From positions 1-64,000 of the IMG/VR virus record IMGVR_UViG_3300027770_003399: a DNA stretch of 64,000 nucleotides, one strand, 5' to 3'. This document shows, one piece after another, positions 11,440-57,998 of the stretch. Every line of letters starts with the position of its first letter. Positions within the stretch are counted from its first letter, which is position 1. Source of the stretch: a virus. The notes below the pieces were generated by a model. The model had not been told where the DNA came from. It was given only the letters and a program-made list of their open reading frames with translations, and did no database searches. Made by a program: the position numbers and the translations under genes.

Positions 11440-13134
11440 CTATAAGCAAGAATAAATCCACTTAGCTTGTCCACAATCCCATATTTTGAATAATCCATGA
11501 TCATATCCAGAATTTCCCGGAAACCTTAATCTATTCAATGTAATTTGGCCATCTGTCCATTTAAAGCTAGGATATGTATGATTATATTTAAATCCTAAAT
11601 CAGACAAATAAGACCCATCCCCATATCTTAGATCTATAAATGTCATAATAGAAGATGGATTAATTTGTTCTATAGCATAATTTAATAGTTTTGAAAATCC
11701 CCCAACAACTCCAGTTCCTTTTGAGCAGCAGAATCTTGATACTTCATAGTCTTTATCTTTTAATCTTTTAAGCCTTAAACAGCTTACAATCTCATTATCA
11801 TATAATAAACAATAGGTTTGTCCCCTACCTTTTCCCATAAGATGATTAATCTCATAAAACTGATCAGCCTCCTTATTGGACAATACTCCTATAGAGCACT
11901 TTCTAGCAAAAATCCTATTAGATTTGCCCAGTCGATTTAGTATGATAGATTTAATAATATCAAACTTATCGTTCAATTCATCTTCCCTAAAAAATAATGA
12001 TCTAAAATTATTACTAGAATATACTAGCCTCTTCATGATATGATAGTTTTTATCTAATTTAGTAGCATCACTATGCCAGTATAGTCCATCTATTTCTATT
12101 AATAAATTATCTATTTTAAAGTCTGATATATAAACCCCATTATCATGAGAAACCCTATGTTGTTGAGAATAACTAATATTTTCTTCATCTAACCAGTTTT
12201 TTAAAATTTGCTCTAGAGAACTATATCTATTACCCTTTTCCATAGTGGTAGCAACTTCAAAACCATATTGAGATACCAACTGATTAAATCTACTGAGACA
12301 ATATCCTGTTTCTTCTGCCCACTCTTTACTATTTTTATTTTCATAAAATCTAGCATTACCATTAGAAATCATAGTATTAACAATCTTCTTTTTAACCTCT
12401 ATATTCTTAGTAGCACTAGTATATCCATATCTTTTTAAATTAGTTTCTTTAGTGGCCTCTTTAAATATTTCTACCTGAGCTACATTTTTGACCCCGTACT
12501 TAATTAGATTAGTATTTTGTTTCAATATCTCATTATTAGGATCTTTTGCATGATGACTAACTCCCCGAACCCTAAGATTAGTATCTTTAATTTTTTGTTT
12601 AATATCTTCATTCTGAAACACATTATCTGTACCAAATCTCTCTAGATTAGTTCTATTTCTATTTTCTGATATTTTTATCTTATATGATGGTCCATACTTT
12701 TCTATTAGGGTTTTATCTTTTTTATCCTGTAGTTTACCCTTAGTATCTAGACCCCAGCTCTTTATGGTTCTATTCAGAGATGATCTTGGAATACCCAGTT
12801 TATTAGATATATTAGATATAGACCACCCCTCTGAGATCATAAGAATAATATCGTCCTTATTACTATTTATTTTAAGACTTTTAGGATTATCTAATCTTTG
12901 AGATGAATTCTTCACTCCGTGCAACAATAGACTTATTTCTTCTCTTTTTTTAAATCTACATTGTTCACAACAATCTTTATCTAGTACCTTGTTCTGAATA
13001 TATCTAGCCTTATTACTTTTAATAATATGCTTATGGCAGTAATCACAATCAACTATAATGCTCTTGTTAGAACACTTGCTAAGGTCTTGTGGATAGTATT
13101 TATATTCACTGTATGTTATATCATTTTGTATCAT
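11440..13134 (-). mobile_element. Free-standing homing endonuclease (Zn-ribbon, TNLxRYG repeats, PD-(D/E)xK/Hef-like C-terminus)
   Basis: CDYC/CEQC pair; repeats TNLERFG, TNLIKYG, TNLKRYG; DFKIDNLLIEIDGLYWHS nuclease motif; IFARKC...NHLMG tail; sits between the capsid gene and the next structural gene. Confidence 0.75.
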
Positions 13135-23021: not shown

Positions 23022-23857
23022 AATTTTTCTTCCGTATTTTGAACTACTGTGTCTGGTGTTAAAAATGGGCGATCTAAAGTATTATCTTGATAAGTATGAT
23101 ACTCACTAAGTTTATCTAAACTTTTTTTTGTTGCCATATTTATAATTTCCATCTCTCTACCTTCTCGTTCTCTTGTTTCTTCATCTTCCAACATTCTTAT
23201 TAATCCGACCCAACTGCTCTTACCATCCTCGATCCTTTTAATTCTTTGTTCTCTTGTTGCTTTTAGATCCTTGCTTATTTTTTGCTGTTCATTTAAAAGC
23301 TTCGTATATTCATTTGTATAACTAGCTATACTATTTCTAGCAAATCCCAATTGTGTTTCTAGTTGCATCAGTTTGCTATAGTCTTTTGTATCATCTGATT
23401 TATTAGACTCTTTGTCAACTGCTTTTTGAAGTTTTTCTGTTTCTGATAGGTGCCGTTTTCTTTCTTTCATGCTTCTATTTATAAGAATATCTATAGTTAT
23501 AAATTGTTTTATTTGAAGTTCTTCTGCTGGTAAAACATCTTCTCTAAACTGCTTAATTAATCCTATCCAAGTATTTATAAAATAAGTAAGTTCTCCTGAC
23601 TCATCATCAAACTGTCTTTCAATTTCTCCCCAAAATGTTTTTCCATATAATTTATGTTTTAAAAAATCGTCACTAGTAACATCTTCTTTGGAAGATACTA
23701 AATTATTTTCTTTAATATATCTTTCTATAGGAGCAGTTCCCCTATTAAGATAATTAGCTATTTCCACTACTGATAAAGTTGTTACTTTTTCCCCTATAAA
23801 TTTTTCTTCTTCTAAACTTAGCTGTCCTCTTTTTTTGGGGGGAGTTGTTTTGTCCAT
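23018..23857 (-). CDS. Hypothetical coiled-coil protein
   Basis: 279-aa co-oriented ORF overlapping its neighbours. Confidence 0.6.
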   Translation of the reverse strand: MDKTTPPKKRGQLSLEEEKFIGEKVTTLSVVEIANYLNRGTAPIERYIKENNLVSSKEDVTSDDFLKHKLYGKTFWGEIERQFDDESGELTYFINTWIGLIKQFREDVLPAEELQIKQFITIDILINRSMKERKRHLSETEKLQKAVDKESNKSDDTKDYSKLMQLETQLGFARNSIASYTNEYTKLLNEQQKISKDLKATREQRIKRIEDGKSSWVGLIRMLEDEETREREGREMEIINMATKKSLDKLSEYHTYQDNTLDRPFLTPDTVVQNTEEKL

Positions 23858-24576
23858 TTTTGTTCCTCCATTATTTTTGAGATATGAGCTTGAAGACGAG
23901 ATAGTTCTTGTTTTTGTATTTTTGTCCCGTGTTTTAATTTAAGATAAGATTCTCTGTATTCTTGTTGAATATATTGATCCAAAAAATCTATGATTTCTTT
24001 ATTTTCAGTTGTTTTTACAGTATCCTTAGTTTTGTCAGCATGAAATCCATCATCAATAATATTAGAGGGTTGGATAATATTCTTCTTAGCATCATTTCTT
24101 TTGCTCCAAGAAGCATATGGTTGACAGTCATCTTTGTTTAAAAACTTGCTACATTGATTGGAGGAATTTTTATAAGCTTTGTCAAATAGGGGACAAGTAA
24201 GACATGGCTTGTCTGGTCTTTGAAAATTATTTCTTTTATAATTAAATAGCCTATTCCTAACATGAGTCCATAAGAAATTTTCCAGCGGTCTGCTGTTGTC
24301 GTATTTTTCAAGTCCCTCTATTGCAAAAATAGCAGCTTGTTGTTTCATATCATCAAAATTGTGATATGCAAATCTAAACTTGTATGCTAATCTTTTGCTT
24401 ATATTATCTAGTACTCTTAAAAAATCTTTTTCATCAACCCCTTTTGGCAATTGGTTTTCTTTGGGTTTTATTTTGGGTTTTGCTTTGGGTTTTGTTTTGA
24501 GTTTTTCCTTGGGTTTTTTAAGAATCTTTAATTTGGGGGTTTTCTTCTTTGGTGTCTTGCTGGGTTTTTTGTTCAT
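23818..24576 (-). CDS. Phage sigma70-like factor (region 2) with Cys-rich insertion
   Basis: DDMKQQAAIFAIEGLEKYDNSRPLENFLWTHVRNRLFNYKR resembles sigma region 2; CLTC...C...C insert; C-terminal helical HTH-like segment. Confidence 0.6.
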   Translation of the reverse strand: MNKKPSKTPKKKTPKLKILKKPKEKLKTKPKAKPKIKPKENQLPKGVDEKDFLRVLDNISKRLAYKFRFAYHNFDDMKQQAAIFAIEGLEKYDNSRPLENFLWTHVRNRLFNYKRNNFQRPDKPCLTCPLFDKAYKNSSNQCSKFLNKDDCQPYASWSKRNDAKKNIIQPSNIIDDGFHADKTKDTVKTTENKEIIDFLDQYIQQEYRESYLKLKHGTKIQKQELSRLQAHISKIMEEQKWTKQLPPKKEDS

Positions 24577-25040: not shown

Positions 25041-25982
25041 ATGAAAATATTAGTAACTGGGGGATCTGGGTTTTTGGGGAAATCTGTTATAGGGGCATTA
25101 TATAATAGTTGTTTTAAATATGATGATGTTTTTATATGTAGAAAAAAGGATTTTGACCTTACTAATAATGATGATGTTAAAAGATTATACTCTACCTATC
25201 AACCTAATGCTGTTATTCATTTAGCAGCAGAGGTTGGTGGGATAGGGGCAAATATGGCCAATCCCGGAAGATTTTTCTATGCTAATATGTCTATGGGAAT
25301 TAATATGGTCGAAAACGCCCGTATATTTAATCTGGAGAAATTTATTTTTGTTGGTACAGTTTGTTCGTATCCAAAATTTTGTAAGGCTCCTTTCCTTGAA
25401 GAATCTATATGGGACGGATATCCAGAAGAAACTAATGCTCCTTATGGAATAGCTAAAAAAAGTATTATGGTAATGCTTCAGTCTTATAATAAACAGTATG
25501 GGTTAAAATCTTGTGTTATCTTGCCAACTAATATGTATGGGCCTAATGATAACTTTAAAGATGAAAGTAGTCATGTTATTCCAAGTTTGATAAAAAAGTT
25601 TGTGGGGGCAAAATTAAATAATGAGGAATCTGTAACTTGTTGGGGAAGTGGACAAGCTACTAGGGAGTTTTTATATGTGGGGGATTGTGCAAGGGGAATA
25701 GTTAGTGGGTTAAAATTAATAGATGAGCCGGTTCCTATTAATATGGGTGGGGGAGTTGAAATTAGTATGTGGGATTTGGCCTATAAAATTAAAGATAGTG
25801 TTGGATATGGGGGATCTATCTTGTGGGATAAGTCTAAGCCTGATGGTCAACCAAGACGGTTATTAAATATTGATAGGGCAAAAAAATTATTAGGGTGGGA
25901 AAGCTTGGTGAATTTTGATGAGGGTTTAAAAGAGACGGTGGAATGGTATGAACAAACTTTAAAAGGGGAAAATAATGGTTGA
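25041..25982 (+). CDS. fcl: GDP-L-fucose synthase
   Basis: LVTGGSGFLG, HLAAEVGGIGAN, GTVCSYPK, PYGIAKK, PTNMYGPNDNF, SHVIP, TREFLYV, KPDGQPRR. Confidence 0.93.
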   Translation: MKILVTGGSGFLGKSVIGALYNSCFKYDDVFICRKKDFDLTNNDDVKRLYSTYQPNAVIHLAAEVGGIGANMANPGRFFYANMSMGINMVENARIFNLEKFIFVGTVCSYPKFCKAPFLEESIWDGYPEETNAPYGIAKKSIMVMLQSYNKQYGLKSCVILPTNMYGPNDNFKDESSHVIPSLIKKFVGAKLNNEESVTCWGSGQATREFLYVGDCARGIVSGLKLIDEPVPINMGGGVEISMWDLAYKIKDSVGYGGSILWDKSKPDGQPRRLLNIDRAKKLLGWESLVNFDEGLKETVEWYEQTLKGENNG

Positions 25983-26379
25983 AAATATTAAGAAGAGACC
26001 TTTCGGTTATAGTTATTTTTTAGATATGTATGATTGTGAGGATACTACAGCAGATGATATGGAATTGGTTTATAGATTTTTAGAAAGATTAGTTGATGAG
26101 ATTGGAATGACTCGAATGACTCCTCCTATTGTTATTCATGGGCCAACTGATCATGGTAGGGAAATTTATGCAGATAAGTGGGGGGTTAGTGGGTGGGTAG
26201 GATTAATAGAGAGTGGAATTCAAATTCATGCTATAGAGGCAAAACATTTTATTAGTCTAGATGTCTATTCGTGTGCTGAATTTAAACCAGAGGTTGTATT
26301 AGATTTTGCTAAGAAAACTTTTGGGTTCAAGAAGCATGAGGCTCACTTCTTAGAGAGAGGAATTGATTATCATGAGTGA
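25975..26379 (+). CDS. speD: S-adenosylmethionine decarboxylase proenzyme-like protein
   Basis: GVSGWVGLIESGIQIH...LDVYSC; the Glu-Ser autocleavage site is retained. Confidence 0.7.
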   Translation: MVENIKKRPFGYSYFLDMYDCEDTTADDMELVYRFLERLVDEIGMTRMTPPIVIHGPTDHGREIYADKWGVSGWVGLIESGIQIHAIEAKHFISLDVYSCAEFKPEVVLDFAKKTFGFKKHEAHFLERGIDYHE

Positions 26380-27070
26380 TGGTAGTGATAATATGTCTCC
26401 TATAATGATGAAACCTGAAGTAAAACTTATTAGTGTTACTCCTGATGCAGAAAAGCATATGGCTTATTGTGCTCGGGTTAGCAATCCTAATAATCAGGAG
26501 AATGATAATTTTTCTGGATTACTAAAGTATTGTATTGATCACCAACATTGGAGTATTTTTGAACAGGCTTTTCTTACTGTTGAGATTAATACTAGTCGGG
26601 GGATTGCTGCTCAAATATTGAGACATAGATCATTTACATTTCAAGAGTTCTCACAGCGTTATGCTGATAGTTCTCTTTTGGGTGAGATTCCTCTTCCAGA
26701 GCTTCGTAGACAAGACACAAAGAATAGGCAAAATTCTACAGATGATCTTGATCCAGATCTTGCTGGTCAACTATATTCTGAGATGCAAAATCATTTTAAG
26801 GCTTGTCAGGATTTGTACAAAAGACTTTTAGATGCTGGGGTAGCAAAAGAGTGTGCGAGATTTGTTCTTCCTCTTGCTACTCCTACAAGACTCTATATGA
26901 CGGGTTCTGTAAGGTCTTGGATTCATTATATAGGGCTTCGCTCAGGTCACGGAACACAAAAAGAACATAAGCATATTGCTGAACTTATTCGTAATATCTT
27001 TACTTGTGAGTTTCCCGTAATAGCTAAAGCGCTTTATGGGTGGGAGATTAAATATTTGTGGGACAAATGA
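26363..27070 (+). CDS. thyX: FAD-dependent thymidylate synthase (true start probably 26405)
   Basis: HWSIFEQ, RGIAAQILRHRSFTFQEFSQRY, ECARFVLP, RSWIHYIGLR. Confidence 0.95.
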   Translation: MIIMSDGSDNMSPIMMKPEVKLISVTPDAEKHMAYCARVSNPNNQENDNFSGLLKYCIDHQHWSIFEQAFLTVEINTSRGIAAQILRHRSFTFQEFSQRYADSSLLGEIPLPELRRQDTKNRQNSTDDLDPDLAGQLYSEMQNHFKACQDLYKRLLDAGVAKECARFVLPLATPTRLYMTGSVRSWIHYIGLRSGHGTQKEHKHIAELIRNIFTCEFPVIAKALYGWEIKYLWDK

Positions 27071-28329: not shown

Positions 28330-29006
28330 AGTGGCTAATTAAATATTAAACTGGCCAATTATTTTTTAGGGTTCGTATCGTTTATGGACCACCCCCGACT
28401 TTATCGCAAAAACTCGGGAGTCCTTTGGCAAACAAAAAAACCCCCTCTCTTGCGGGGGACCTTCTATTGGGGGGGTAGCCAATACCATAGAGGGGTCTTA
28501 TATTGGAGCCCCTCTTGCGGAGCCCCTTCTATTGGAGGGATAGCCAATACCATAGTAGACCCGACCCGTATGTTGAGACCCGAATATAAGTTCTTACGCT
28601 GTAAGGAGTTACGACAAGCTTTCGCCCGCCCGAAAGTTGTAAGTTCTTTGGTACCAACGACTTAGAGCAAGTGCCCTGTGCAAATATCGTGCCAAACTTT
28701 CTACAAAAAAAAATTTTATTTCGCATTCTACTGATACCTTATTGGGGGGGACCTCTATTGGGGGGATAGCTATATCGTAGGTGGGGTATCGTAAACGCAA
28801 CTCGATTGCATTCTATATATCGACAACTTCTCAACATTTTTGAGCACAAAAAAAAAGATTTTTTGAGACGTAAAGCCTTGCTACCCAACAGGTTACGTCA
28901 AAGCAAAAACATTTTTATATTTCCTATTGGACAAAGCGAATGATGTCGATATAATACGTAGAGAAGAAGAAAAGAAGAAAAAGAAAAGAAAGAAAAGAGA
29001 AAAACA

Positions 29007-29261
29007 ATGAATATCGAAAAGATCAAAAAGACGTACGGAACAGATTGCCAGACTTGTGAGCAAGTATGGAATCAAGCGGTTGAAGCCTACAAGAACGACT
29101 TCACCTTTGCTGAACATGTTGACGAGTTCAACAATGATCGTTTTGAGTTCAACTCGCCTGAAGCGATTGAAGCCTACGAACTCAGCGAATACTTTGAAGA
29201 ACACGTTGAAGAATATTATCTTCCAGAGGCTTGGGAACAATACGATTATGAAACAAGATGA
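29007..29261 (+). CDS. Small acidic early protein
   Basis: Follows a promoter and purine-rich leader; Glu/Asp/Tyr-rich. Confidence 0.6.
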   Translation: MNIEKIKKTYGTDCQTCEQVWNQAVEAYKNDFTFAEHVDEFNNDRFEFNSPEAIEAYELSEYFEEHVEEYYLPEAWEQYDYETR

Positions 29262-29292
29262 GTCTAGTAAAGAAAGAAAAGAGAAAAGCATT

Positions 29293-29544
29293 ATGAAAAA
29301 AAACAACGGTCTATCAAAAGTATTTCTAGGAAAAGGTTTCTTTCATATGGAAGAAAAGATGGTAGCGGTAGTGGAAGGAATCGAGACGCCAGTGTTCTGT
29401 CATGGCTCTTTCGGATCCTACTTGATTGTGAGTTCAACCCATTGGAAAAACGGAGGGTTGCGAACTATCGAAGAAGATTGCGTTGTGAAAGGTTTAGCTC
29501 ATCAAACGATTTTAGACTTTCATGGAAAAAGGAAAACAGTATGA
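29293..29544 (+). CDS. GFFHM-family early protein, paralog 1
   Basis: MKKNNGLSK...GFFHMEEKMV...VFCHGSFG; paralogs at 33131 and 33759. Confidence 0.7.
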   Translation: MKKNNGLSKVFLGKGFFHMEEKMVAVVEGIETPVFCHGSFGSYLIVSSTHWKNGGLRTIEEDCVVKGLAHQTILDFHGKRKTV

Positions 29545-29759
29545 ATAACTTTGACGATGTTCCTCTAGCGTTGACAACTATCATTGACAACAGAAAAGAA
29601 AAAGAAAACCTATCATTCTTTGAACATTTTGATATGGATGCTTTTCTATTAGATCAGGATGAGTCCGAGTCCGACTATATACCGGGCTATGATGATGGCG
29701 AATGGGATAATAACGAAGAAGTATATGATACATTCGTAGACGTTAATGAGCGGGCGTGA
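29541..29759 (+). CDS. Small acidic protein, paralog 1
   Basis: MNNFDDVPLAL...ESDYIPGYDDGEWD...EEVYDTFVDVNERA. Confidence 0.65.
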   Translation: MNNFDDVPLALTTIIDNRKEKENLSFFEHFDMDAFLLDQDESESDYIPGYDDGEWDNNEEVYDTFVDVNERA

Positions 29760-30100
29760 TAACTACTCCTTGCGGGGGGGGGATAGTGTACAAACGCTAC
29801 CCCCCTATGAGGGGATACCATTACCCCCCCAACGGACTAGAACTTAAACCCTTACAGCGTAAGAACTTACGACAAGCTTTCGCCCGCCCGAAAGTTGTAA
29901 GTTGTTTGATACCAACGACTTAGAGCAAGTGCTCAGAGCAAATGTTGTGCCAAACTTTGTACAAAAGATTTATTTTGTTTTGGCATGAGAAATTATTCCG
30001 AGAAATTTCTTTTTAGCTATTGCAAAAGCCTAGAAGTGTCGATATAATACGTAGAGAAGAAGAAAAGAAGAAAAAGAAAAGAAAGAAGAAGGATTTTAAG

Positions 30101-30328
30101 ATGAATATTTTTGTGATAGTTGGTTACATTGCGATCTCCGCACTAGTTTTAATCGGTGTCGGCAATGTATTGTTTTACCTTGTCATTCAAGTGCTTGGCC
30201 GTCTTGACAATATGATCCAAAAAGGTGGATACACTTTTCATGGTTGTATTGGAGAGGCACCGAAGATGCCGGAAGTCTGGAAAGATTCCAACGGAGATGA
30301 GTGGACAATATCTTCTTGCGAAGATTGA
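30101..30328 (+). CDS. Small membrane protein
   Basis: MNIFVIVGYIAISALVLIG hydrophobic start after the purine leader; similar start at 32379. Confidence 0.5.
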   Translation: MNIFVIVGYIAISALVLIGVGNVLFYLVIQVLGRLDNMIQKGGYTFHGCIGEAPKMPEVWKDSNGDEWTISSCED

Positions 30329-30673
30329 TTGTTACATGATCTGCGGGTCAGATAGTATCTTCTGGGGGATAGTGTACAAACGCTACCCCCCTATGAGGGT
30401 ATACCATTACCCCCCCAACGTACTAGAACTTAAACCCTTACAGCGTAAGAACTTACGACAAGCTTTCGCCCGCCCGAAAGTTGTAAGTCCTTTGATACCA
30501 ACGACTTAGAGCGAGTGCCCTGTGCAAATACCGTGCCAAACTTTGTGTAAAAGATTTATTTTGTTTTGGCATGAGAAATTATTCCGAGAAATTTCTTTTT
30601 CCCTATTGCAAAAGCCTAGAGATGACGATATAATACACAGAGAAGAAGAAAAGAAGAAAAAGAAAAGAAAGAA

Positions 30674-31000
30674 ATGAGAAAGACGATGATGAAGAAAAAG
30701 AGTTATCTAAATTGCGAAGTAGTTGTGAACTATAAAGGTAAGAGGATCGAGGGTGCTGTAGTTGGAGTAGATCGCAATCTTCATCGTATTGGCGAAAGTC
30801 TCGGTACGCGATTGCTCATTCAAACAGAATGGAAAGGCTCTTTCCTAAGAGGTACAGAAACCATTTGCGAAAAGTCTGTTTACAAGTCCGTCTACCTTGA
30901 TCAGGCTGAAGGATTCCGCGTTATTGAACGTGCGGATCACTATACTGGAAAAGATGAGCCTTGTGATGCTGTAAGAGATTATCGTCGAGTTAATAACTAA
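30674..31000 (+). CDS. Hypothetical early protein
   Basis: First ORF after a repeat promoter. Confidence 0.6.
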   Translation: MRKTMMKKKSYLNCEVVVNYKGKRIEGAVVGVDRNLHRIGESLGTRLLIQTEWKGSFLRGTETICEKSVYKSVYLDQAEGFRVIERADHYTGKDEPCDAVRDYRRVNN

Positions 31001-31018
31001 AGAAAAGAGAAAAAGAAA

Positions 31019-31231
31019 ATGCTTGCGACGAATTCGAAAAATGTAACAAATAACCTTGATAAGATTTTCACTGCTATGCGAAACGGTAAGTATAATAGCG
31101 TGATTGATACAAGAGGCCGTGTTCACATGGGTATCATCAACGCTATCATGCGTGAAGACGGTAGCGGAAAGAATTGGATTGTAACAGTGACAGGTGCGGT
31201 AAGCGAAAAAGTATTCATTCACGCCTCTTGA
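31019..31231 (+). CDS. Hypothetical early protein
   Basis: Purine-rich leader, co-oriented. Confidence 0.6.
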   Translation: MLATNSKNVTNNLDKIFTAMRNGKYNSVIDTRGRVHMGIINAIMREDGSGKNWIVTVTGAVSEKVFIHAS

Positions 31232-31261
31232 AAAAAGTAAAAAAAAAGAAAGAAAAAGAAA

Positions 31262-31432
31262 ATGGATATGAATCATTTTGAAGATGTTCTACTCGCCCTT
31301 GAAGATATTATCAACAGCAGAAAGATTAAAGAAAACCTATCATCCTTTGAAAATTTTGATATGGATACGCTCACCGAACATGAGGACGAAGAAGTATATG
31401 ATACATTCGTAGATGTTAATGAGCGGGCGTGA
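31262..31432 (+). CDS. Small acidic protein, paralog 2 (not in the ORF track)
   Basis: Manual translation: MDMNHFEDVLLALEDIINSRKIKENLSSFENFDMDTLTEHEDEEVYDTFVDVNERA*; the C-terminus is identical to 29541-29759. Confidence 0.7.
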   Translation: MDMNHFEDVLLALEDIINSRKIKENLSSFENFDMDTLTEHEDEEVYDTFVDVNERA

Positions 31433-31760
31433 TAACTACTCCTTGTGGGGGGATAGTGTACAAACGCTACCCCCCTATGAGGGTATACCATTACCCCCCC
31501 AACGGACTAGAACTTAAACCCTTACAGCGTAAGAACTTACGGCAAGCGGGGGCCCGCCCGAAAGTTGTAAGTTGTTTGATACCAACGACTTACGGCAAGT
31601 GCCATGTGCAAATGGTGTGCCAAACTTTGTACAAAATATTTATTTTGTTTTGGCATGAAAAATTATTCCGAGAAATTTCTTTTTTCCCTATTGCAAAAAC
31701 ATAGAACGGACGATATAATACATAGAGAAGAAGAAAACAACTAAAAGAAAGAGAAAGACT

Positions 31761-32114
31761 ATGACCATGACACTATCAAATTTTAATCAGAACCACTATA
31801 AGATGACGACCGGGTTTATTGAGGACGAACAGGGTCTTACCGGAGTCGTTGGAATGATTATATCTTTCGGAGTCTATGACGACTCCCATGATAGCAATGA
31901 AGAGTCATTTTCGTATGACGATGGTCTCGTGAAAAGGTATTACGAGATCGCTCCCTACTACTGTGTAGTAGATGAGAACGGGCCAGTCACTGATGATAAC
32001 GGTACTCTTAAAGTTTTCCCTATTCTTATCGGCGGATGGGGCCACCCGCCCACCGTAGCCTTGATCAGCCTGATCGAGCAAGAAATAGACCGAATGTTTT
32101 CCATCAACTACTAG
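31761..32114 (+). CDS. Hypothetical early protein
   Basis: First ORF after a repeat promoter. Confidence 0.55.
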   Translation: MTMTLSNFNQNHYKMTTGFIEDEQGLTGVVGMIISFGVYDDSHDSNEESFSYDDGLVKRYYEIAPYYCVVDENGPVTDDNGTLKVFPILIGGWGHPPTVALISLIEQEIDRMFSINY

Positions 32115-32378
32115 AAAGTTTACAATGTCCCTCCCGTATACCATTGCAATTGTTAAAAGTATCAACTCTAAAAAGAAATGAATAAAATGAAAAATCGAAG
32201 AAAAGTATCGAATTATGAGAAAGCCCAAGCCCTAATGGAAGAGGCCACCCGTATAGGTATGAACAAAAAGATAACCTATCAAAAATGCCTCTGCCCCATT
32301 TGTATCGAAGCTCGGAGCAAGCCCCACAGTGTTAAAGTTGTAATAGAGTCTTGAGTTTAGTATCAATAGAAAAAAGGT

Positions 32379-32588
32379 ATGTATATGAATATGTTTGAAG
32401 TTGTTGGGTATCTGGCGATTGTTTGGTTGCTCGGTTGTATAGTTTTCCTTCCGTGTTATGCTATCGTATGGTATTTTGTTAGTATGAAAAATAATAAGAT
32501 ACCGATGAGTAGTGATAGCGTGTGGGTTAATGGTGTTAATATTCACCATGATACCAATGGTAACATCTCTAGTTTTGCAAAAGATTAG
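32379..32588 (+). CDS. Small membrane protein
   Basis: MNMFEVVGYLAIVWLLGCIV hydrophobic start. Confidence 0.5.
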   Translation: MYMNMFEVVGYLAIVWLLGCIVFLPCYAIVWYFVSMKNNKIPMSSDSVWVNGVNIHHDTNGNISSFAKD

Positions 32589-32894
32589 ATATGCTACCTA
32601 CGGGGGGATAGTGTACAAATGCTACCCCCCTGAGATACTAGGTCTTAAACCCTTACAGCGTAAGGACTTACGACAAGCGGGGGCCCGCCCGAAAGTTGTA
32701 AGTTGTTTGGTAGCAACGACTTAGGGCGAATGACCAGTGCAAATACCGTGCCAAACTTTGTGTAAAAGATTTATTTTGTTTTGGCATGAGAAATTATTCC
32801 GAGAAATTTCTTTTTTAGCTATTGCAAAGGGTTAGAATAGTCGATATAATACTTAGAGAAGAAGAAAAGAAGAAAAAGAAAAAAGGAAAAGAAA

Positions 32895-33125
32895 ATGGAT
32901 ATGGATAAAGATAGCATCGAAATGGAACTTAAATACAGAGGGTATTCTCTCGTTCCCAGACTTGCGGGAAATGATCCTCACCTCAAAGCGGAGAATCTTA
33001 GGTGGAGAGTAACTTCCAATCATATCGATTGGGATTGGGATTTTAAGACTCTGGAAGAAGTGGTAGAGTTTATCGGTAAGGAAAAACAAATATTCAAACA
33101 GGTATGTCGCAGGTTATCAAAATAA
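32895..33125 (+). CDS. Hypothetical early protein
   Basis: First ORF after a repeat promoter. Confidence 0.55.
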   Translation: MDMDKDSIEMELKYRGYSLVPRLAGNDPHLKAENLRWRVTSNHIDWDWDFKTLEEVVEFIGKEKQIFKQVCRRLSK

Positions 33126-33130
33126 GGAGA

Positions 33131-33421
33131 ATGATTATGAATGATGGTATTGCAAAAAAGATGGGTGACCGGGGTTTCTTCCACATGATGGAAAAGATGA
33201 TGGTTAATGTTGATGGTGTTGTGCAAGAAGTTGTATGTCATGGTACATTTAACGATCAACTAATGTTAAGTTCATCCGATTGGTATGGTATCAAAATGGT
33301 TGATATTGATAAAATCAGATGTCGGCCTTATCATCCTAGCTTTGAGAGTATTGTTGATGGTGAGTCGGATCAAGACTATTACAACTATATCGACGCGATT
33401 GATCAGGCTTTTCGTGATTGA
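33131..33421 (+). CDS. GFFHM-family early protein, paralog 2
   Basis: AAGGAGA RBS; NDGIAKKMGDRGFFHMMEKMM...VVCHGTF. Confidence 0.7.
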   Translation: MIMNDGIAKKMGDRGFFHMMEKMMVNVDGVVQEVVCHGTFNDQLMLSSSDWYGIKMVDIDKIRCRPYHPSFESIVDGESDQDYYNYIDAIDQAFRD

Positions 33422-33758
33422 GCACAAACACTACCCCCTGTATGAGGGGGACACTCTTGTGGGGGGATAGTGTACAAACGCTACCCCCCTGAGACACTAG
33501 ATCTTAAACCCTTACAGCGTAAGGACTTACGATTTTGGGGCGGGCCCCCGCAAGCTGTAAGTTCTTTGATACCAACGACTTAGAGCAAGCGTCCAGAGCA
33601 AATGGTGTGCCAAACTTTGTACAAAAGATTTATTTTGTTTTGGCATGAGAAATTATTCCGATAAATTTCTTTTTAGCTATTGCAAAAGCTGAGAATGGAC
33701 GATATAGTGCTTAGAGAGTAACAAGAGAAGAAAACGAAAATAAGAAAAGAGAAAAAAG

Positions 33759-34163
33759 ATGACAAAGAACAACGACGGTCTTGCAAAAAAGTTCGGTGAT
33801 GTGGGTTTCTTCCACATGTTGGAAAGAATGATGGTCACGATTGAGGGCGAGAAAGAGCAGGTTGTGTGCCACGGCACGTTCGGAAGCCAGTTGCTTCTGA
33901 GTTCTCAAAAATGGGATGGAATCAAGATGGTCGATGTCGATAGCATTGTCTGTCGCCCTTTTCATCCGGTCTTCACCAGCATTATGCTGGGAGATCAAAG
34001 CAAGGAAAATCTTCTGGAATACTGGCATTGGGTCGGTCTGCCTCAAGACCATCTCTATGTCGATTGGGACGTGATGTATTTGAGCGAAATGGAAGCGATC
34101 TGTATGGACGGACTACAAGAGGAGGACTACCCTCTTAATTGCGAAGCTGATTGGGGGAAGTAA
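33759..34163 (+). CDS. GFFHM-family early protein, paralog 3
   Basis: NDGLAKKFGDVGFFHMLERMM...VVCHGTFG; its stop codon TAA is the first 3 nt of dyad A at 34161. Confidence 0.7.
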   Translation: MTKNNDGLAKKFGDVGFFHMLERMMVTIEGEKEQVVCHGTFGSQLLLSSQKWDGIKMVDVDSIVCRPFHPVFTSIMLGDQSKENLLEYWHWVGLPQDHLYVDWDVMYLSEMEAICMDGLQEEDYPLNCEADWGK

Positions 34164-34403
34164 ACCCTTACAGCGTAAGAACTTAGAGCAAGCAGGGGCC
34201 CGCCCGAAAGTTGTAAGTTGTTTGATACCAACGACTTAGAGCAAACGCCCAGAGCAAATACCGTGCCAAACTTTGTACAAAAGAATTATTTTTATTTGGC
34301 ATGAGAAATTATTCCGATAAATTTCTTTTTTCCTATTGCAAAAGAATAGAATGGTCGATATAATGCTTAGAGAAGAAGAAATCACCACAACGGAGAGAAA
34401 AAC

Positions 34404-34622
34404 ATGTCACATTACGAAAACGACGATTATGAGTGTGCAGACGATCCTTTTTGTCCTCCTGCTTTCCCCATCTCTGATGAGTCGGACTATATGCCCGGCT
34501 ATGATGACGGAGCATATGATGCTGACGAGGTTGACGAAGATGAGTCTGACTATATGCCCGGATGGGATGATGGCGAATGGGATGATCATGAGAGTCTGTG
34601 CGGCGAAGAGGATTTCGCCTAG
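34404..34622 (+). CDS. Very acidic small protein with a doubled ESDYMPG[YW]DDG motif
   Basis: Two copies of the motif also found in 29541-29759. Confidence 0.65.
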   Translation: MSHYENDDYECADDPFCPPAFPISDESDYMPGYDDGAYDADEVDEDESDYMPGWDDGEWDDHESLCGEEDFA

Positions 34623-34997
34623 TACCTGTGGGGGGATAGTGTACAAACGCTACCCCCCTATGAGGGTATGCCATTACCCAGGTATGCTTATAGTCTCACC
34701 AAATCCACGGAGATTGACTAAATTGGCTATAGTCAGCGAGAATCACCCCCCCACAACATACTAGATCTTAAACCCTTACCCCGTAAGGAGTTACGAAAAG
34801 CTTTCGCCCGCCCGAAAGTTGTAAGTTGTTTGGTAGCAACGACTTAGAGCAAGCGTCCTGTGCAAATACTGTGCCAAACTTTCTCAAAAGAATTATTTTA
34901 TTTGGCATGGTAAATTATTTCCCGAATTTCTTTTTTTCCTATTGCAAAATCATAGGATGGTCGATATAATCTTTAGAGAAAAGAAAAGAGAAAAAAG

Positions 34998-35333
34998 ATG
35001 AACAAGATGGTAAGAAAAGCGAAACGATTGGCTCGCAAATGTTTTCTAGGGATCGCTATTCCCACCCTTAAAAAATCAGTCGATGGTGGTTGGGTCGAGT
35101 GTGAAAAAGTTTGGAAGTTTAACCGAATTTCTTTATTGTCTCCACCTACCAAAAAGACGAGTAAAAAGCAACTGGTAAACCCAGCAGCAGACTTGGCCTT
35201 TGTAAAAGCTGGTCGTCCCGGAAGCAAGGAACGAATGGAATCATATAAGCTTCAATACGAAGCTATTGAGGAGAAAGATGAATATGGCATGACTATTATT
35301 CCTGAAGGAAATATGTCGTTGTTTGCTGAATAG
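34998..35333 (+). CDS. Hypothetical early protein
   Basis: First ORF after a repeat promoter. Confidence 0.6.
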   Translation: MNKMVRKAKRLARKCFLGIAIPTLKKSVDGGWVECEKVWKFNRISLLSPPTKKTSKKQLVNPAADLAFVKAGRPGSKERMESYKLQYEAIEEKDEYGMTIIPEGNMSLFAE

Positions 35334-35382
35334 GGTATTGACAAGAAAATAATTTAAGGTATAACGGAAACAAGGAGAAATT

Positions 35383-35679
35383 ATGATGACAAAAGATGAG
35401 CTAGTACAGGTTGAGAGCTATAATGGTTGGAAAAATTATGAGACTTGGAATGTTTCCCTCTGGATAGTGAATGATGAGAGGTACTATAACATTGCCAAAA
35501 AAACACGAGATTATACATATTTTTTATATGCTCTTGAGAGGGAGTATCATCTACAGCCCTCATGGCACTGCGGATTACCGAACGGGCTTATCAAGAACAC
35601 AACTCCTGACGGTGTTTCTTGGATCGACCGTAGAATTGATGTTGGTGCGATCAATAAGATGCTAGGAGAATTGGCATAA
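35383..35679 (+). CDS. Hypothetical phage protein
   Basis: YNGWKNYETWNVSLWIVNDE...TPDGVSW motif, recurrent in phage early genes; own TTGACA promoter at 35338 and AAGGAG RBS. Confidence 0.65.
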   Translation: MMTKDELVQVESYNGWKNYETWNVSLWIVNDERYYNIAKKTRDYTYFLYALEREYHLQPSWHCGLPNGLIKNTTPDGVSWIDRRIDVGAINKMLGELA

Positions 35680-36366
35680 TGACTTATAAAGAATTGCTCG
35701 ATAGGTTACAAGAACTTGATCAAGAAAAGTTAAGTGGGCCTGTTAAGGTGTGGAATGATAATGATAGTCAATATATGGAACTGTTGACTTTCAACGATAT
35801 AGAAGTTTTTTGGGCCAGTTTTCCGACCATATTTTAGGGGAAATAGTATGATGATGGAAGTATATCTAGGTATTGTTTTTGTAACGTCTTTAATTGGGGC
35901 GTTTGGTATTGGTGTTACTGGTACTCTCTTGTATGTTATTTATAAGGAGGATAAGATTGGATATTGATAATATTGAAAATCTTTATGAGATGGAAGATAG
36001 TCTCTATCGTAATGTTGAAATGGAATGTCCTGAATATCTGGTAGGTGATAACTTGTGTGATTATAATTCAGAAACAGACAGTTATCATTATAAGTATTGA
36101 TTTATTATACTACCACCCGTAAACCCTTTGGTCGTAAGAACTTAGGGCAAGCGGGGGCCCGCCCGGAAGTTGTAAGTTCTTTGGCAGCAACGACTTAGAG
36201 CGAATGCCCCGTGCAAATACTGTGCCAAACTTTGTACAAAAGATTTATTTTGTTTTGGCATGAGAAATTATTCCGAGAAATTTCTTTTTTAGCTATTGCA
36301 AAAGATTAGAAGTGTCGATATAATACATGGAGAAGAAGAAAACAAGAAAAGGAAAAGGAAAAGAAA

Positions 36367-36756
36367 ATGTACGATCTACAAAAAGCGGTCAGAGAAAAAG
36401 AGAGAGCAATGAAAGCACTAGAATATGCACAAAACGAATTCGAGATTTGTGAGGCTCAGTTGGAAAGTGTGCTAAAAGACATGAAGAAAAATTGGATAGC
36501 GGCGGAGAAAAAATGGGCGAGTAGTGTTCTGAATCTCGTAGAGGCTCGCAAAGCTGCCAGTGCTGCGGCTCTTGTGCGAAGCGTCGGAATCCCAATAGTA
36601 ACGTCTCAAAGCGTTAAAGATTGGCAGCAAGAGGTAATAGAAACTAGGAACGATGTTGCAAGAGAACACAATGCCTACCTATTGGCCTGCGAATGTGCGG
36701 GGGTTGTCCGAGAGGGCAAAATCAATGAGGGAACGGGTCTTGCTTTATTGTCCTGA
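36367..36756 (+). CDS. Hypothetical coiled-coil early protein
   Basis: First ORF after a repeat promoter. Confidence 0.6.
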   Translation: MYDLQKAVREKERAMKALEYAQNEFEICEAQLESVLKDMKKNWIAAEKKWASSVLNLVEARKAASAAALVRSVGIPIVTSQSVKDWQQEVIETRNDVAREHNAYLLACECAGVVREGKINEGTGLALLS

Positions 36757-36800
36757 GTCTAAAGAGTTGTAATTAAAGAAAAAGAAAAGAGAAAAAGAAA

Positions 36801-37208
36801 ATGAAACTAGAAACATACGAAGCAGCAATAGCAGCGATTGAGAAAACTCGAAACAAAGTATCCAAGAGAGTGTCGGCCAATACTACCCTCTACAAAATTG
36901 TGGCTGTGGATGGTACGGTAACTGTGGGAGTAAAACTCTATGATACATTTGTGGTCATCATGCACCCGGATCATTCGGTATTATTTTCGGGAGGTTATAA
37001 AACCAGCACTACAAAAAAGAGAATCAATAACTATAGCTTGTGTTCGATATTTCAAAAAGACTTTGAATGGTTTGTGAAAGATGGTACCCCTTTTGAGGAG
37101 GGGATCGTAGTAGATCGTGGGGGGGCATTGCTATCTTTGACTCCTCAGAGTTTAGAGTGTGCATCATTTATACTCCCGCCCCTAACTCCTTTGGTCATAG
37201 GAACTTAG
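36801..37208 (+). CDS. Hypothetical phage protein
   Basis: LFSGGYKTSTTKKRINNY motif; reads into dyad A of the next repeat. Confidence 0.6.
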   Translation: MKLETYEAAIAAIEKTRNKVSKRVSANTTLYKIVAVDGTVTVGVKLYDTFVVIMHPDHSVLFSGGYKTSTTKKRINNYSLCSIFQKDFEWFVKDGTPFEEGIVVDRGGALLSLTPQSLECASFILPPLTPLVIGT

Positions 37209-37322
37209 GGCAAGCGGGCCCCCGCCCGGAAGTTGTAAGTTGTTTGATACCAACGACTTAGAGCGAATACCCAGTGCAAATGGTGTGCCAAAAAAATATT
37301 TTAATAAATTTCTTTTTAGCTA

Positions 37323-37661
37323 TTGCAAAAGAATAGAAGAGACGATATAATACGTAGAGAAGAAGAAATCACACCACAGGGAGAGAAAAACGTGTTCAAT
37401 ACGCCATATGCTTTGTCGGATCGTACAACTCGGACGATTACCGCAGTGGACATGATCGAGTTTAGTGGGCTGTCCACTAGCGGTAGTAAATTCAAAATAG
37501 TCACTAAACTTGAGGATGCCCAGCGTTGGGTCAACGGAGAGTTCATTCAAAATTGTTTCCCTTATCTCAATGCTGATGAGCGTGAAATTCTGATGACGGG
37601 AATCGACGCTCAGACTTGGGAAACCATGTTAGTAGGAATGCAGGAGGAAGAGGAAGTATGA
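37323..37661 (+). CDS. Hypothetical protein (true start probably downstream of 37351)
   Basis: IQNCFPYLNADEREILMTGI motif; the track start lies inside the promoter. Confidence 0.55.
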   Translation: MQKNRRDDIIRREEEITPQGEKNVFNTPYALSDRTTRTITAVDMIEFSGLSTSGSKFKIVTKLEDAQRWVNGEFIQNCFPYLNADEREILMTGIDAQTWETMLVGMQEEEEV

Positions 37662-37710
37662 ATACCGATACCTAATTGCAAAAGAACAGAAGAGATGATA
37701 TAATACATAT

Positions 37711-37825
37711 ATTCCGGTACCATCCCGAATACGGGTGGTGGAGCGAATTAACGCCACGGCGCTACACCCGTGTCTTATCACTAATCAGGTAAGATCGCTG
37801 AATTAACAGCCGGACACCGCACACA
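37711..37825 (+). ncRNA. Candidate structured RNA leader of the LexA-like gene
   Basis: Promoter at 37676-37704; stems ACGGGTG/CACCCGT, GCG-AATTAA-CGC, TCTTA/TAAGA and GCTG-AATTAA-CAGC. Confidence 0.5.
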
Positions 37826-37849
37826 GAGGAAAAGAAAAAAGGAAAAAAA

Positions 37850-38482
37850 ATGAAACCGCTCACCGAACGACAAACTGCTATCTACGAATTCATTCGAGAG
37901 AAGATTCAGTCTCGCGGATATGGTCCGACCATCAGGGAAATCGGTGATGCTTTCCAAATTCATTCACTCAATGGAGTGATATGCCACCTAAAAGCTCTGG
38001 AGAAAAAGGGGTGGATTACACGTGGAAAGAAAATGTCAAGAGCAATCCAACTCCTTGGTGAGCCACCGATGGTATATACGACTCAGCATAAAGTTGCTGT
38101 TGCCATGATTGAATCGACGTATGAAGCCTATAAAGACTGGAAAAGTCATGATAAGGAATATTTGACCGACGAATTAAATAACTATAATGACAACATTCCA
38201 GTATGGCGAGATATGGATGATAACACCAAGTGCGCAGCGATTGAATACGTATACAACAAGCGTGATACTATTGAGCTTCATTCTGATATTGTTGAATCTT
38301 GGGTACAAGCAACAGCGTATTTTATGTTATATAATTTTTGTAGTGATATTACAAATGGAGAAGAGCCAGATTTGGAAATGTTTTTTGATGATCTGGATTT
38401 TATGTTGGACGAAGAAATTCTCAACGATAGTGATGTTCAAAAGATAATGGGAATAAGTTCAGATTTTACAAAAAAGTTCTAA
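37850..38482 (+). CDS. LexA-type N-terminal DNA-binding domain fused to an acidic unknown domain (no peptidase domain)
   Basis: LTERQTAIYEFI...GYGPTIREIGDAFQIHSLNGVICHLKALEKKGWITRGKKMSRAI is the LexA winged HTH; no Ala-Gly site or Ser/Lys dyad is recognisable. Confidence 0.8.
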   Translation: MKPLTERQTAIYEFIREKIQSRGYGPTIREIGDAFQIHSLNGVICHLKALEKKGWITRGKKMSRAIQLLGEPPMVYTTQHKVAVAMIESTYEAYKDWKSHDKEYLTDELNNYNDNIPVWRDMDDNTKCAAIEYVYNKRDTIELHSDIVESWVQATAYFMLYNFCSDITNGEEPDLEMFFDDLDFMLDEEILNDSDVQKIMGISSDFTKKF

Positions 38483-38689
38483 TGAAACTACGCTCCTCTT
38501 TCTTCTCTCCGTAAACCCTTTGATCGTAAGAACTTAGGGCGAGCGGGGGCCCGCCCGAAAGTTGTAAGTCCTTTGATAGCAACGACTTAGAGCAAACACC
38601 CAGAGCAAATACTGTGCCAAAAAAATATTTTAATAAATTTCTTTTTCCCTATTGCAAAAGAACAGAAGAGACGATATAATACATACATA

Positions 38690-38862
38690 GGCCAGTAACT
38701 GCGAGAGGGAAGCAGGGCGACGAGATTAAAAAATCTCTAAGGACCAGTGCCGTGGGCAGTTCCAGTATTGATGCTTTCGAGCAGGGAGAAATTTCCCTAG
38801 ATACTGATTATAGAACCGGATCGTAAATGGTTCGCTGGTAACAATACAACAGCCGGATACCG
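38690..38862 (+). ncRNA. Candidate multi-stem ncRNA expressed as its own cassette
   Basis: Directly after promoter 38652-38680, with no ORF; stems AACTGC/GCAGTT, GAGATT-aaaa-AATCTC, CAGTAT/ATACTG enclosing TGCT-TTCG-AGCA and GGGAG-aaat-TTCCC, and GAACC/GGTTC. Confidence 0.55.
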
Positions 38863-39045
38863 TTTAGTCTCACCAAATCCACGGGGATTGGCTAAATTGG
38901 CTATAGTCAGCGAGAATGCGGGGCCGTTTAGTCTCACCAAATCCACGGGGATTGGCTAAATTGGCTATAGTCAGCGAGAATGCGGGGCCGTTTAGTCTCA
39001 CCAAATCCACGGGGATTGGCTAAATTGGTTATAGTCAGCGAGAAT
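38861..39045. repeat. Three tandem near-identical 64-bp repeats
   Basis: CGTTTAGTCTCACCAAATCCACGGGGATTGGCTAAATTGGCTATAGTCAGCGAGAATGCGGGGC starting at 38861, 38925 and 38989 (last copy partial); a single copy at 34691-34744. Confidence 0.9.
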
Positions 39046-39218
39046 CCCCCCGAACATACTAGATCTTAAACCCTTACCACGTAAGGACTTACGAAAAGCT
39101 TTCGCCCGCCCGGAAGTTGTAAGTTCTTTGATACCAACGACTTAGGGCGAACTCGCTGTGCAAATACTGTGCCAAACTTTGTACAAAAGATTTTCACAAT
39201 AATTCATGCTAGAGCCTA

Positions 39219-40402: not shown

Positions 40403-40580
40403 TACTCCCTGCCTCGCAAACCCTCTGTGCGTAAGCACTTAGGGCGAGCGGGCCCCCGCCCGGAAGTTGCAAGTTCTTATGGGGTAAGACTTTGCATCAT
40501 ATTATTTTTTCCTAAAGATTTCCTCTTGACAAGTCGATTTATATCGTATACAATAATCAGACACAAAGGGAGAAAATCTA

Positions 40581-54310: not shown

Positions 54311-55228
54311 ATGAGTTATGGTATCTGTTGTATAGTATTGTCTTTAGCCGATCAAGACCCGCCAGTCAAATTTCAGACCATGACATATAAAAGATTTTCC
54401 TCATTAGAAATTAGTGAGGCTCTTAATATTTTAGGTGGTAGAATTTTAAATAATATGAATGTTACTTTCGAGTGCATTAAGTTTTGTTTTCAGAATAATT
54501 ATACCTATCGGATTAGTAGTGATCTATTTCCAATTATGACTTATGACAGAGCAAATATTGAGTTGGGCGATCTTCCTCAATATGATGAGATTTTATCTGC
54601 TATGAGTAAGATTAAAGATTTTGTTACAGCTAATCCAACAAGGGTAAGTTGTCATCCTAGTGAATTTAATGTATTGGCATCTTTTAATAGTGTTGCAGTA
54701 GAGAAAACTATTAAGGAATTAAATTATTATAGTTGGTTTATGGACAAGATCGGTTGTTCACCTGATTATAACTCACCTATGAATATTCATATCCATTCAA
54801 ATGCGGGTGAGAGATCAGAAGTTATTGAGAGATTTATGATTAATTATAATAGATTAGATACTAATTGTAGGAATAGATTGGTTATTGAGAATGATGACAA
54901 GTTGAATTGTTGGAGCGTTAATAGGCTAATCAAATACTTGACCCCTGTTCATAATATACCTATCACATTCGACTACCTGCACCATAAATGTCATCCAGAT
55001 GGACTAACGGAACAAGAAGCATTTGAAATATGTGTAGATACTTGGGGACAATACAAGCCACTATTTCATTATAGTGAGAGTAGAATTCTTGGAGATAATC
55101 CTAGAGCACATGCTGATTATCTAACGTCTTTACCAGACACATACGGGGTGGATGTTGATATTGATCTAGAATTAAAGATGAAAGATAAATGTTTTGAATT
55201 TTTACCAGCAGGAGTAGTATTACAATGA
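54311..55228 (+). CDS. uvsE: UV-damage endonuclease (UVDE)
   Basis: YRISSDLFP, RVSCHPSEFNVLAS, RLVIENDDK, PITFDYLHH, PLFHYSESR, RAHADY, DLELKMKD. Confidence 0.9.
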   Translation: MSYGICCIVLSLADQDPPVKFQTMTYKRFSSLEISEALNILGGRILNNMNVTFECIKFCFQNNYTYRISSDLFPIMTYDRANIELGDLPQYDEILSAMSKIKDFVTANPTRVSCHPSEFNVLASFNSVAVEKTIKELNYYSWFMDKIGCSPDYNSPMNIHIHSNAGERSEVIERFMINYNRLDTNCRNRLVIENDDKLNCWSVNRLIKYLTPVHNIPITFDYLHHKCHPDGLTEQEAFEICVDTWGQYKPLFHYSESRILGDNPRAHADYLTSLPDTYGVDVDIDLELKMKDKCFEFLPAGVVLQ

Positions 55229-57861: not shown

Positions 57862-57937
57862 GGGGCGTAAGGTAAGCCGGTTGCATCCGTCACTCTTATA
57901 AGGTGATCATAGGTACGTTCAACTCGTACACGCCCTA
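57862..57937 (+). tRNA. tRNA-Ile(TAT), rare UAU anticodon
   Basis: GGGGCGT/ACGCCCT acceptor; TCACT-CTTATAA-GGTGA anticodon arm; GTACG-TTCAACT-CGTAC T arm; weak D stem; own promoter TTGACA-17-TAGAAT at 57823-57851. Confidence 0.7.
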
Positions 57938-57998
57938 TTTTATAGTTTTAGTGTATTCTTTTTTATATAGAAGATTACTTATTTTAAAAGGACATACC

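Follow-up and report, generated by a model that had tools for sequence, protein, structure and literature searches.

The window analysed here comprises the first 64,000 nucleotides of IMG/VR virus record IMGVR_UViG_3300027770_003399, i.e., the first half of the 122,120-bp genome of an uncultured lake phage, and carries on its minus strand an array of twelve sites of the -24/-12 type that is characteristic of sigma-54 (RpoN) promoters. The feature is real and conserved, and each site is located in one copy of a repeated intergenic cassette (~330 bp, based on an alignment of the copies) that separates small early genes. The sites are interpreted, tentatively and at somewhat less than even confidence, as docking sites for the host's sigma-54 polymerase, which would be mostly silent and would have sequestration as their effect; binding is predicted from the sequence.

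A pattern search of the window yielded twelve exact matches to TTGGCAC-N5-TTGCW on the minus strand between positions 28679 and 39175, as the initial annotation of this DNA had claimed, and dinucleotide-preserving shuffles (n = 100) contained no match to this pattern. A relaxed core (TGGCAY-N5-TTGC) was not found outside the array in the whole 122,120-bp genome. All twelve sites contain TGGCAC and TTGC with GG and GC exactly 10 nt apart, i.e., the -24/-12 arrangement of sigma-54 sites. Variation among the copies, which the initial annotation had placed in the N positions with GG-N10-GC invariant, is indeed restricted to positions 8, 9, and 10 (three of the five N) and the W at position 17, while the 13 specified motif positions are invariant in 12/12 copies. 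In the neighbouring 14-nt spacer, 10 of 14 columns vary across the copies. As the twelve copies are descendants of one repeated cassette and not twelve independent events, the meaningful signal is the constant motif next to a diverged spacer; variation at low-information positions combined with changes in 10/14 spacer columns argues for selection rather than recent copying.

Scoring of the sites was performed with a count matrix built from the 42 intergenic-sense E. coli sigma-54 ChIP-seq motifs in Table 1 of Bonocora et al. 2015 (PMC4591121). The twelve phage sites reached 18.5–21.7 bits out of a maximum of 24.2, which corresponds to the 62nd to 93rd percentile of genuine sites simulated from the matrix (median 17.4 bits), whereas the best hit in shuffled genomes averaged 15.6 bits; the comparison of an RpoN weight matrix with shuffled controls, as proposed in the initial annotation, thus came out in favour of its reading. 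All four variable motif columns belong to the seven that carry the least information in the E. coli matrix. Reading the site as a sigma-70 element was rejected, since the nearest -10-like hexamer is only 12–14 nt away from TTGGCA. The individual sites and their scores are as follows.

28679..28695, minus strand: sigma-54-type site 1 (TTGGCACGATATTTGCA), 21.7 bits
29937..29953, minus strand: sigma-54-type site 2, 19.6 bits
30523..30539, minus strand: sigma-54-type site 3, 20.8 bits
31607..31623, minus strand: sigma-54-type site 4, 20.2 bits
32738..32754, minus strand: sigma-54-type site 5, 20.8 bits
33597..33613, minus strand: sigma-54-type site 6, 19.4 bits
34253..34269, minus strand: sigma-54-type site 7, 20.0 bits
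34861..34877, minus strand: sigma-54-type site 8, 19.3 bits
36212..36228, minus strand: sigma-54-type site 9, 19.3 bits
37275..37291, minus strand: sigma-54-type site 10, 20.2 bits; cassette with a ~40 bp deletion, sigma-70 -35 element only 31 nt off
38604..38620, minus strand: sigma-54-type site 11, 18.5 bits; cassette in the same deletion form as at site 10
39159..39175, minus strand: sigma-54-type site 12, 19.3 bits; another sigma-70 promoter follows
33856..33872, minus strand: possible 13th site (GTGGCACACAACCTGCT), 18.0 bits; outside the repeat, antisense within the open reading frame (ORF) 33759-34163

The possible 13th site may be a chance match, and a further candidate at 14434, located within an ORF, was discarded as a probable chance match. 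Distances from site to site in the window are 0.5–1.4 kb, with all sites occurring singly.

Each cassette starts with two G-run/C-run hairpins directly after the stop codon of the upstream gene, followed by a first dyad (dyad A), a GC-rich hairpin, and a second dyad (dyad B); the 14-nt spacer and the site come next, and the cassette ends with an AT-rich stretch containing TTTGTACAAA and a plus-strand TTGGCAT, the sigma-70 early promoter TTGCAA-17-TATAAT, and a purine-rich leader in front of the small gene. Dyad B (25 bp, minus-strand arm TAAGTCGTT) starts exactly 14 nt past the 17-mer in 12/12 copies, the plus-strand TTGGCAT box lies 24–26 nt past the site in 8/12 copies, and the sigma-70 promoter (one with TATAGT) starts 64–67 nt past the site in eight copies and 31 nt past it in two, while the copies at 28679 and 39159 have other promoters. 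The gap to dyad B that remains constant despite its varying sequence, the second, opposite-facing -24-only box in most copies, and the back-to-back sigma-70 promoters were all described in the initial annotation and were recovered here. In total, 15 cassette units were counted, of which 12 bear a site, and the TTGCAA-17-TATAAT promoter follows 10 of these 12; the cassettes at 40460, 41865, and 43133 have the dyads and retain their own promoters but are devoid of the site. All sites point back to the dyad module and the 3' end of the upstream gene. The elements of a representative cassette are listed below.

29774..29830, plus strand: two G-run/C-run hairpins after the upstream stop codon; the first loop contains GTGTACAAACGCTAC
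29845..29869, no strand assigned: dyad A (9-7-9, imperfect), 53 bp upstream of dyad B
29865..29902, plus strand: GC-rich hairpin, outer stem ACTTAC/GTAAGT, inner part varying by copy; possibly the terminator of the upstream gene
29898..29922, no strand assigned: dyad B (TAAGTTGTT-7-AACGACTTA), 20/25 columns invariant over the 12 copies
29923..29936, no strand assigned: variable GC-rich spacer of 14 nt, minus strand ~-10 to +4 of the sigma-54 site
29956..29965, no strand assigned: palindrome TTTGTACAAA near the -24 side of the site, exact in 6/12 cassettes
29980..29986, plus strand: opposite-facing TTGGCAT "-24-only" box without the -12 GC, in 8/12 cassettes
30020..30048, plus strand: sigma-70 early promoter TTGCAA-17-TATAAT, then purine-rich leader and ATG at ~30101

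Three further observations concern the cassettes and their surroundings. The first G-run/C-run hairpin loop contains GTGTACAAAYGCTAC in six cassettes (29786, 30372, 31456, 32611, 33470, and 34639, plus strand), and the first nine bases of its reverse complement (GTAGCGTTTGTACAC) are the same as those of the enhancer palindrome GTAGCGTTTTGCTAC of relatives of the phage. On the minus strand, the 14-nt spacers read roughly CWGG-N3-YTYGCYC, several copies being GGCAC-TTGC, so that the spacer resembles a collapsed second site with the wrong spacing and is perhaps the remnant of a tandem pair. Tandem arrays with a period of 64 bp and containing TAGTCAGCGAG are present at 38860-39045 (2.9 copies) and 45843-45997 (2.4 copies).

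The phage belongs to a large family of uncultured phages, with more than 595 relatives in IMG/VR based on its terminase (TerL; 76–80% identity), and related contigs are present in metagenome-assembled genome (MAG) bins labelled ME2017/ME2018. Megablast of the array against isolate phages returned no match, and the best isolate TerL matches (Bacillus and Microcystis phages) were 24–28% identical. Across 1.3 Mb of related loci, 175 unique sites with a score of at least 14 bits were identified, with the family consensus TTTGGCA(C/T)(G/A)NN(A)TTTGC(T/A). These sites occur in three settings. Either the site adjoins a dyad and points towards it, as in the window, or it is located in sense orientation upstream of a CCTTAC-N6-GTAAGG dyad and a sigma-70 promoter, or it appears as a sense promoter. 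The latter setting comprises ten sites on six contigs (L015, L034, L036, L047, L051, and L069), in which TTGGCAC-N5-kTGCW is followed by TATATAG, a purine-rich leader, and the ATG of a small gene 31–49 nt downstream, and in which two or three GTAGCAAAATGCTAC-like palindromes start 79–161 bp upstream (10/10 sites). Judged by its arrangement, this setting corresponds to a textbook enhancer-dependent sigma-54 promoter; such putatively complete promoters are found at L034:2985-5760 (minus strand) as well as in L015, L036, L047/L091, L051, and L069. TATATAG was also considered as a general late promoter of the studied phage, for which no pattern was seen.

Where sites are clustered in the relatives, they keep a fixed spacing (tandem 26 bp, convergent 19–21 bp, divergent 23 bp), some complete relatives have only one or two sites, and site orientation varies across the family. 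The dyads differ by subfamily (GTAAGT-type in the window, CTGCCATTTTGGCAG in G008 and G013), while the site is unchanged. In the G008/G013 subfamily (L090, L092, L030, L031, L035, and L044), two perfect CTGCCATTTTGGCAG palindromes ~29 bp apart start 3–5 nt past the sigma-54-type site and overlap the predicted transcription start; each arm of these palindromes resembles a -24 element. In relatives, the two arms of a dyad frequently belong to distinct half-site types and do not complement each other, so that the dyads resemble DNA sites bound by a dimeric protein more than stems of an RNA.

Arrays of the same motif extend to other phages. Tandem pairs of TGGCAC-N5-TTGC within 30 nt were detected in at least 120 viral contigs, compared to 9, 20, and 11 viral contigs for the control spacings N4, N6, and N7, respectively. 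Among the 120 loci listed, 109 had no tblastx similarity to the studied phage, GC content ranged from 34 to 67%, and at least four sites were present in 77, the highest count being 44 within 6.5 kb. Packing in these contigs (L103-L222, e.g., L131, L133, and L206) was 26–29 bp for tandem, 19–20 bp for convergent, and 23 bp for divergent sites and agrees with that in the relatives; in L206, site orientation alternates eight times in succession. As N5 arrays are common to many unrelated phages, the binder probably comes from the host; across phages this different, a conserved host protein is a far more plausible common factor than a protein specific to a phage. To our knowledge, sigma-54 is the only factor with such a motif and such strict spacing, which makes host sigma-54 the most likely binder of the twelve motifs. 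The assignment of the sites to the sigma-54 type in the initial annotation is therefore backed by the matrix scores, the restriction of variation to low-information positions, the sense promoters of the relatives, the N5-specific arrays, and the occurrence of rpoN in the suggested host phyla (see below).

Regarding the host, the phage encodes DUF1501 (339 bits; 57903-59243, plus strand) and DUF1552 (314 bits; 3-1073, minus strand) proteins, whose nearest protein clusters are mostly from Planctomycetota. These marker genes point to Planctomycetota or Verrucomicrobiota as host. The gene rpoN is present in 32/33 genera of Planctomycetia, in 7/7 Phycisphaerae, and in Opitutia, with Planctomycetia having on average ~21 sigma-54 activators per genome, while Actinomycetota are without rpoN (PMC12316311). 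If the phylum is assigned correctly, a host lacking rpoN is unlikely. In the phage genome itself, searches for a sigma-54 activator (PF00158) and for a sigma-54 DNA-binding domain (PF04552) gave no hits, and the activator search in a complete relative returned only a 12.6-bit P-loop match. An ORF of 252 aa at the head of the late minus-strand block (23818-24576, minus strand) matched Sigma70_r2 at 22.8 bits, i.e., just under the Pfam cut-off, as well as a PHROG sigma-factor family, and probably encodes a phage late sigma factor of the sigma-70 family. Within the array, an ORF of 210 aa (37850-38482, plus strand) contains a LexA DNA-binding domain (76 bits) without a peptidase domain, and its product could be a protein that binds the dyads or TTTGTACAAA. 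Other genes recorded in the window were a homing or HNH endonuclease-like ORF of 564 aa among structural genes (11440-13134, minus strand; PHROG 3339, E-value 3.6e-58), a ThyX thymidylate synthase (26363-27070, plus strand), an S-adenosylmethionine decarboxylase-like protein (25975-26379, plus strand), and a UvdE UV endonuclease (54311-55228, plus strand).

In the proposed mechanism, each cassette site would hold the host's sigma-54 polymerase in a silent closed complex, mostly without firing. Upon replication of the phage genome, each new copy would add twelve sites of consensus strength and draw on the small sigma-54 pool of the host until it is depleted, which would dampen its enhancer-dependent stress responses and at the same time free more core polymerase for the sigma-70 early promoters next to the sites. 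If the sites were transcribed at all, the product would be antisense and depend on a host activator. E. coli cells contain only about a hundred sigma-54 molecules; relative to a pool of this size, a replicating genome with twelve consensus sites would act as a large sink, irrespective of the function for which the sites were selected.

The explanation closest to this one is that the sites are enhancer-gated antisense promoters, from which a host activator would trigger transcription during infection that crosses the dyad module and reaches the 3' end of the preceding early gene, lowering or shutting off early gene expression via antisense RNA or polymerase collision. Since the phage family uses the motif as a promoter with enhancer-like palindromes, since two antisense, dyad-adjacent sites in L034 are located 30–110 bp from the palindrome cluster serving a sense promoter, similar to divergent sigma-54 pairs of E. 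coli, and since the predicted start is 4 nt before dyad B in 12/12 copies, firing has to be considered; in addition, interference by active antisense sigma-54 promoters could not be excluded by Bonocora et al. (PMC4591121). In the window, however, parts of such a promoter were not found. The GTAGCAAAATGCTAC-like enhancer palindromes of the relatives are absent from the studied genome, no enhancer-like repeat was detected in the window cassettes, no activator gene was found in the phage, and at the distance of upstream activator sites (~80–150 bp) the window offers none, with only a single TTTGTACAAA close to the site in six copies. Neither a downstream gene nor a functional RNA was found for the window sites, since what lies ahead of them is the dyad module and then the end of the preceding gene. 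The 11 nt due to melt have a GC content of 61% in a region of 41% GC, and the sense promoters of the relatives have TATATAG in the corresponding region. Folding of the predicted minus-strand RNA was unremarkable compared to shuffled sequences (z-scores of -0.46 and -1.27), mean folding energies of the two strands in 39 related copies were -26.1 and -26.5 kcal/mol with a split of 20:19, and Rfam at a permissive threshold returned two tRNAs only; a strand-specific structured RNA was ruled out based on these z-scores and the lack of strand preference. Accordingly, of the antisense, hairpin-rich RNA suggested in the initial annotation, the predicted +1 about 4 nt before dyad B stands, while the hairpin-rich character does not. 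Antisense promoters would further be at odds with the G008/G013 dyads overlapping the predicted start, with the opposite orientation of sites in other relatives, and with the packing in relatives and unrelated phages, where sites 19–29 bp apart are too close for independent promoters and overlapping sites at 19–23 bp cannot all be promoters. The consensus strength of all twelve sites, the missing enhancer and phage activator, the GC-rich melting region, the unremarkable RNA, the unconserved orientation, and the tight packing elsewhere together make us lean towards silent docking with sequestration, and we consider antisense promoters unlikely, although they are the most probable of the competing explanations. 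Of the alternatives named in the initial annotation, the sigma-54 sponge is thus the favoured one. A roadblock, also suggested there, has become less likely because bound sigma-54 polymerase in E. coli does not reduce the expression of the genes that contain it (PMC4591121).

Less probably, the motif serves as operator for a different DNA-binding protein of phage or host, e.g., a response regulator or a MotA-like activator reading the direct repeat TTGGCA-N5-TTTGCA, and would then resemble sigma-54 sites only by coincidence. The halves of the motif do form a direct repeat (T-K-GCA) with 11-bp spacing, an architecture known from winged-helix regulators, clusters of 17-bp sites 2–9 bp apart resemble phage operator arrays, and in the sense promoters of the relatives TTGGCA is located ~12 bp upstream of TATATA, which resembles T4 middle promoters; the LexA-type protein and the sigma-70-family factor encoded by the phage are possible participants. 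Yet a phage-specific protein would not be expected to spread so widely that strict N5 spacing and equal packing recur in unrelated contigs of 34–67% GC, the second half is more commonly TTGCT than TTGCA, the secondary preferences for C/T at position 7 and G/A at position 8 are those of the E. coli sigma-54 matrix, and the enhancer-like palindromes of the sense promoters are at a distance typical of sigma-54, so that this explanation appears improbable. Still less can be said for functionless relics of an ancestral cassette that spread along with a multiplying promoter module. Cassettes with their own promoters and no site (40460, 41865, and 43133), the common ancestry of all twelve copies, and complete relatives with only one or two sites would fit such relics, but 13 positions are invariant in 12/12 copies next to 10/14 changed spacer columns, and the motif is kept in relatives despite differing flanks and dyads, which leaves relics as a very improbable explanation.

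Several points also weigh against silent docking with sequestration. Its benefit to the phage is conjecture, and the window has single sites 0.5–1.4 kb apart instead of the dense arrays by which a sponge would be suggested most strongly. The relatives use the identical motif as an apparently working promoter, which favours firing, as do the antisense sites of L034 near a palindrome cluster. That the sites keep a fixed position beside dyad B in either orientation class points to a local role beyond simple titration. The host is read from marker genes only, and TerL matches in GTDB genomes fell into five MAG bins with conflicting labels (Rickettsiales, Flavobacteriales, SAR202, Silvanigrellaceae, and unclassified); host assignment via the MAG bins holding related contigs was dropped due to this conflict. 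A wider generalization is rather doubtful in our view, namely that phages of sigma-54 hosts use arrays of consensus sites as DNA decoys, which would capture the scarce sigma-54 (free or as holoenzyme) during phage genome replication, silence the enhancer-dependent stress and defence regulon, and shift core polymerase to phage sigma-70 promoters. In the studied phage, such a decoy would be part of a mobile promoter cassette, and its dose would grow with cassette number.

Sigma-54 is considered to regulate nitrogen, stress, and envelope responses of the host, and in the literature searched phages figure only as inducers or inhibitors of sigma-54, never as carriers of its sites. Neither arrays of such sites nor sigma-54 promoters were found described for any phage genome in this literature, in line with the initial annotation, whose author knew of no such array in a phage. 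Here, a widespread freshwater phage family keeps consensus sigma-54-type sites, with apparently complete enhancer-type promoters in some relatives. If the sites bind sigma-54 polymerase, these phages would either run genes on the enhancer-dependent switch of the host or disarm that switch with DNA decoys, and either outcome would be a new layer of phage-host control.

Compared to bacterial sigma-54 promoters (glnAp2, pspA, and the divergent hycA/hypA and zraP/zraS of E. coli; PMC4591121), the phage sites share the -24 GG/-12 GC motif with exact spacing and equal the best E. coli promoters in score, and the relatives share the full layout of two to three palindromes ~80–160 bp upstream, site, and gene. 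Unlike in bacterial promoters, the sites of the window lack an enhancer, a downstream gene, and an activator gene, face the 3' end of the preceding gene, and are part of a repeated cassette, and in relatives they are packed 19–29 bp apart in both orientations. The silent intragenic or antisense sigma-54 sites of E. coli, for which decoy and interference roles have been discussed (PMC4591121), are likewise good motifs that do not front a gene and presumably hold a closed complex. They are, however, scattered, mostly weaker, and within genes, whereas the phage sites are intergenic, of consensus strength, one per cassette, conserved in the family, and multiplied by replication. The cassette as a whole resembles the promoter-early stem-loop (PeSL) cassettes of T4-type phages (PMC2839356, PMC4122927) in combining a stem-loop and an early sigma-70 promoter between small variable genes and in having copies within one genome block that are similar enough to recombine. 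In contrast to the phages carrying PeSLs, the studied phage falls outside the T4-like phages, its TerL being no more than ~28% identical to that of any isolate, and its cassette is longer (~330 bp) and has two dyads resembling protein sites plus the sigma-54-type site, neither of which is mentioned in the PeSL descriptions considered. The phage cassette thus works like a PeSL without belonging to the PeSL family.

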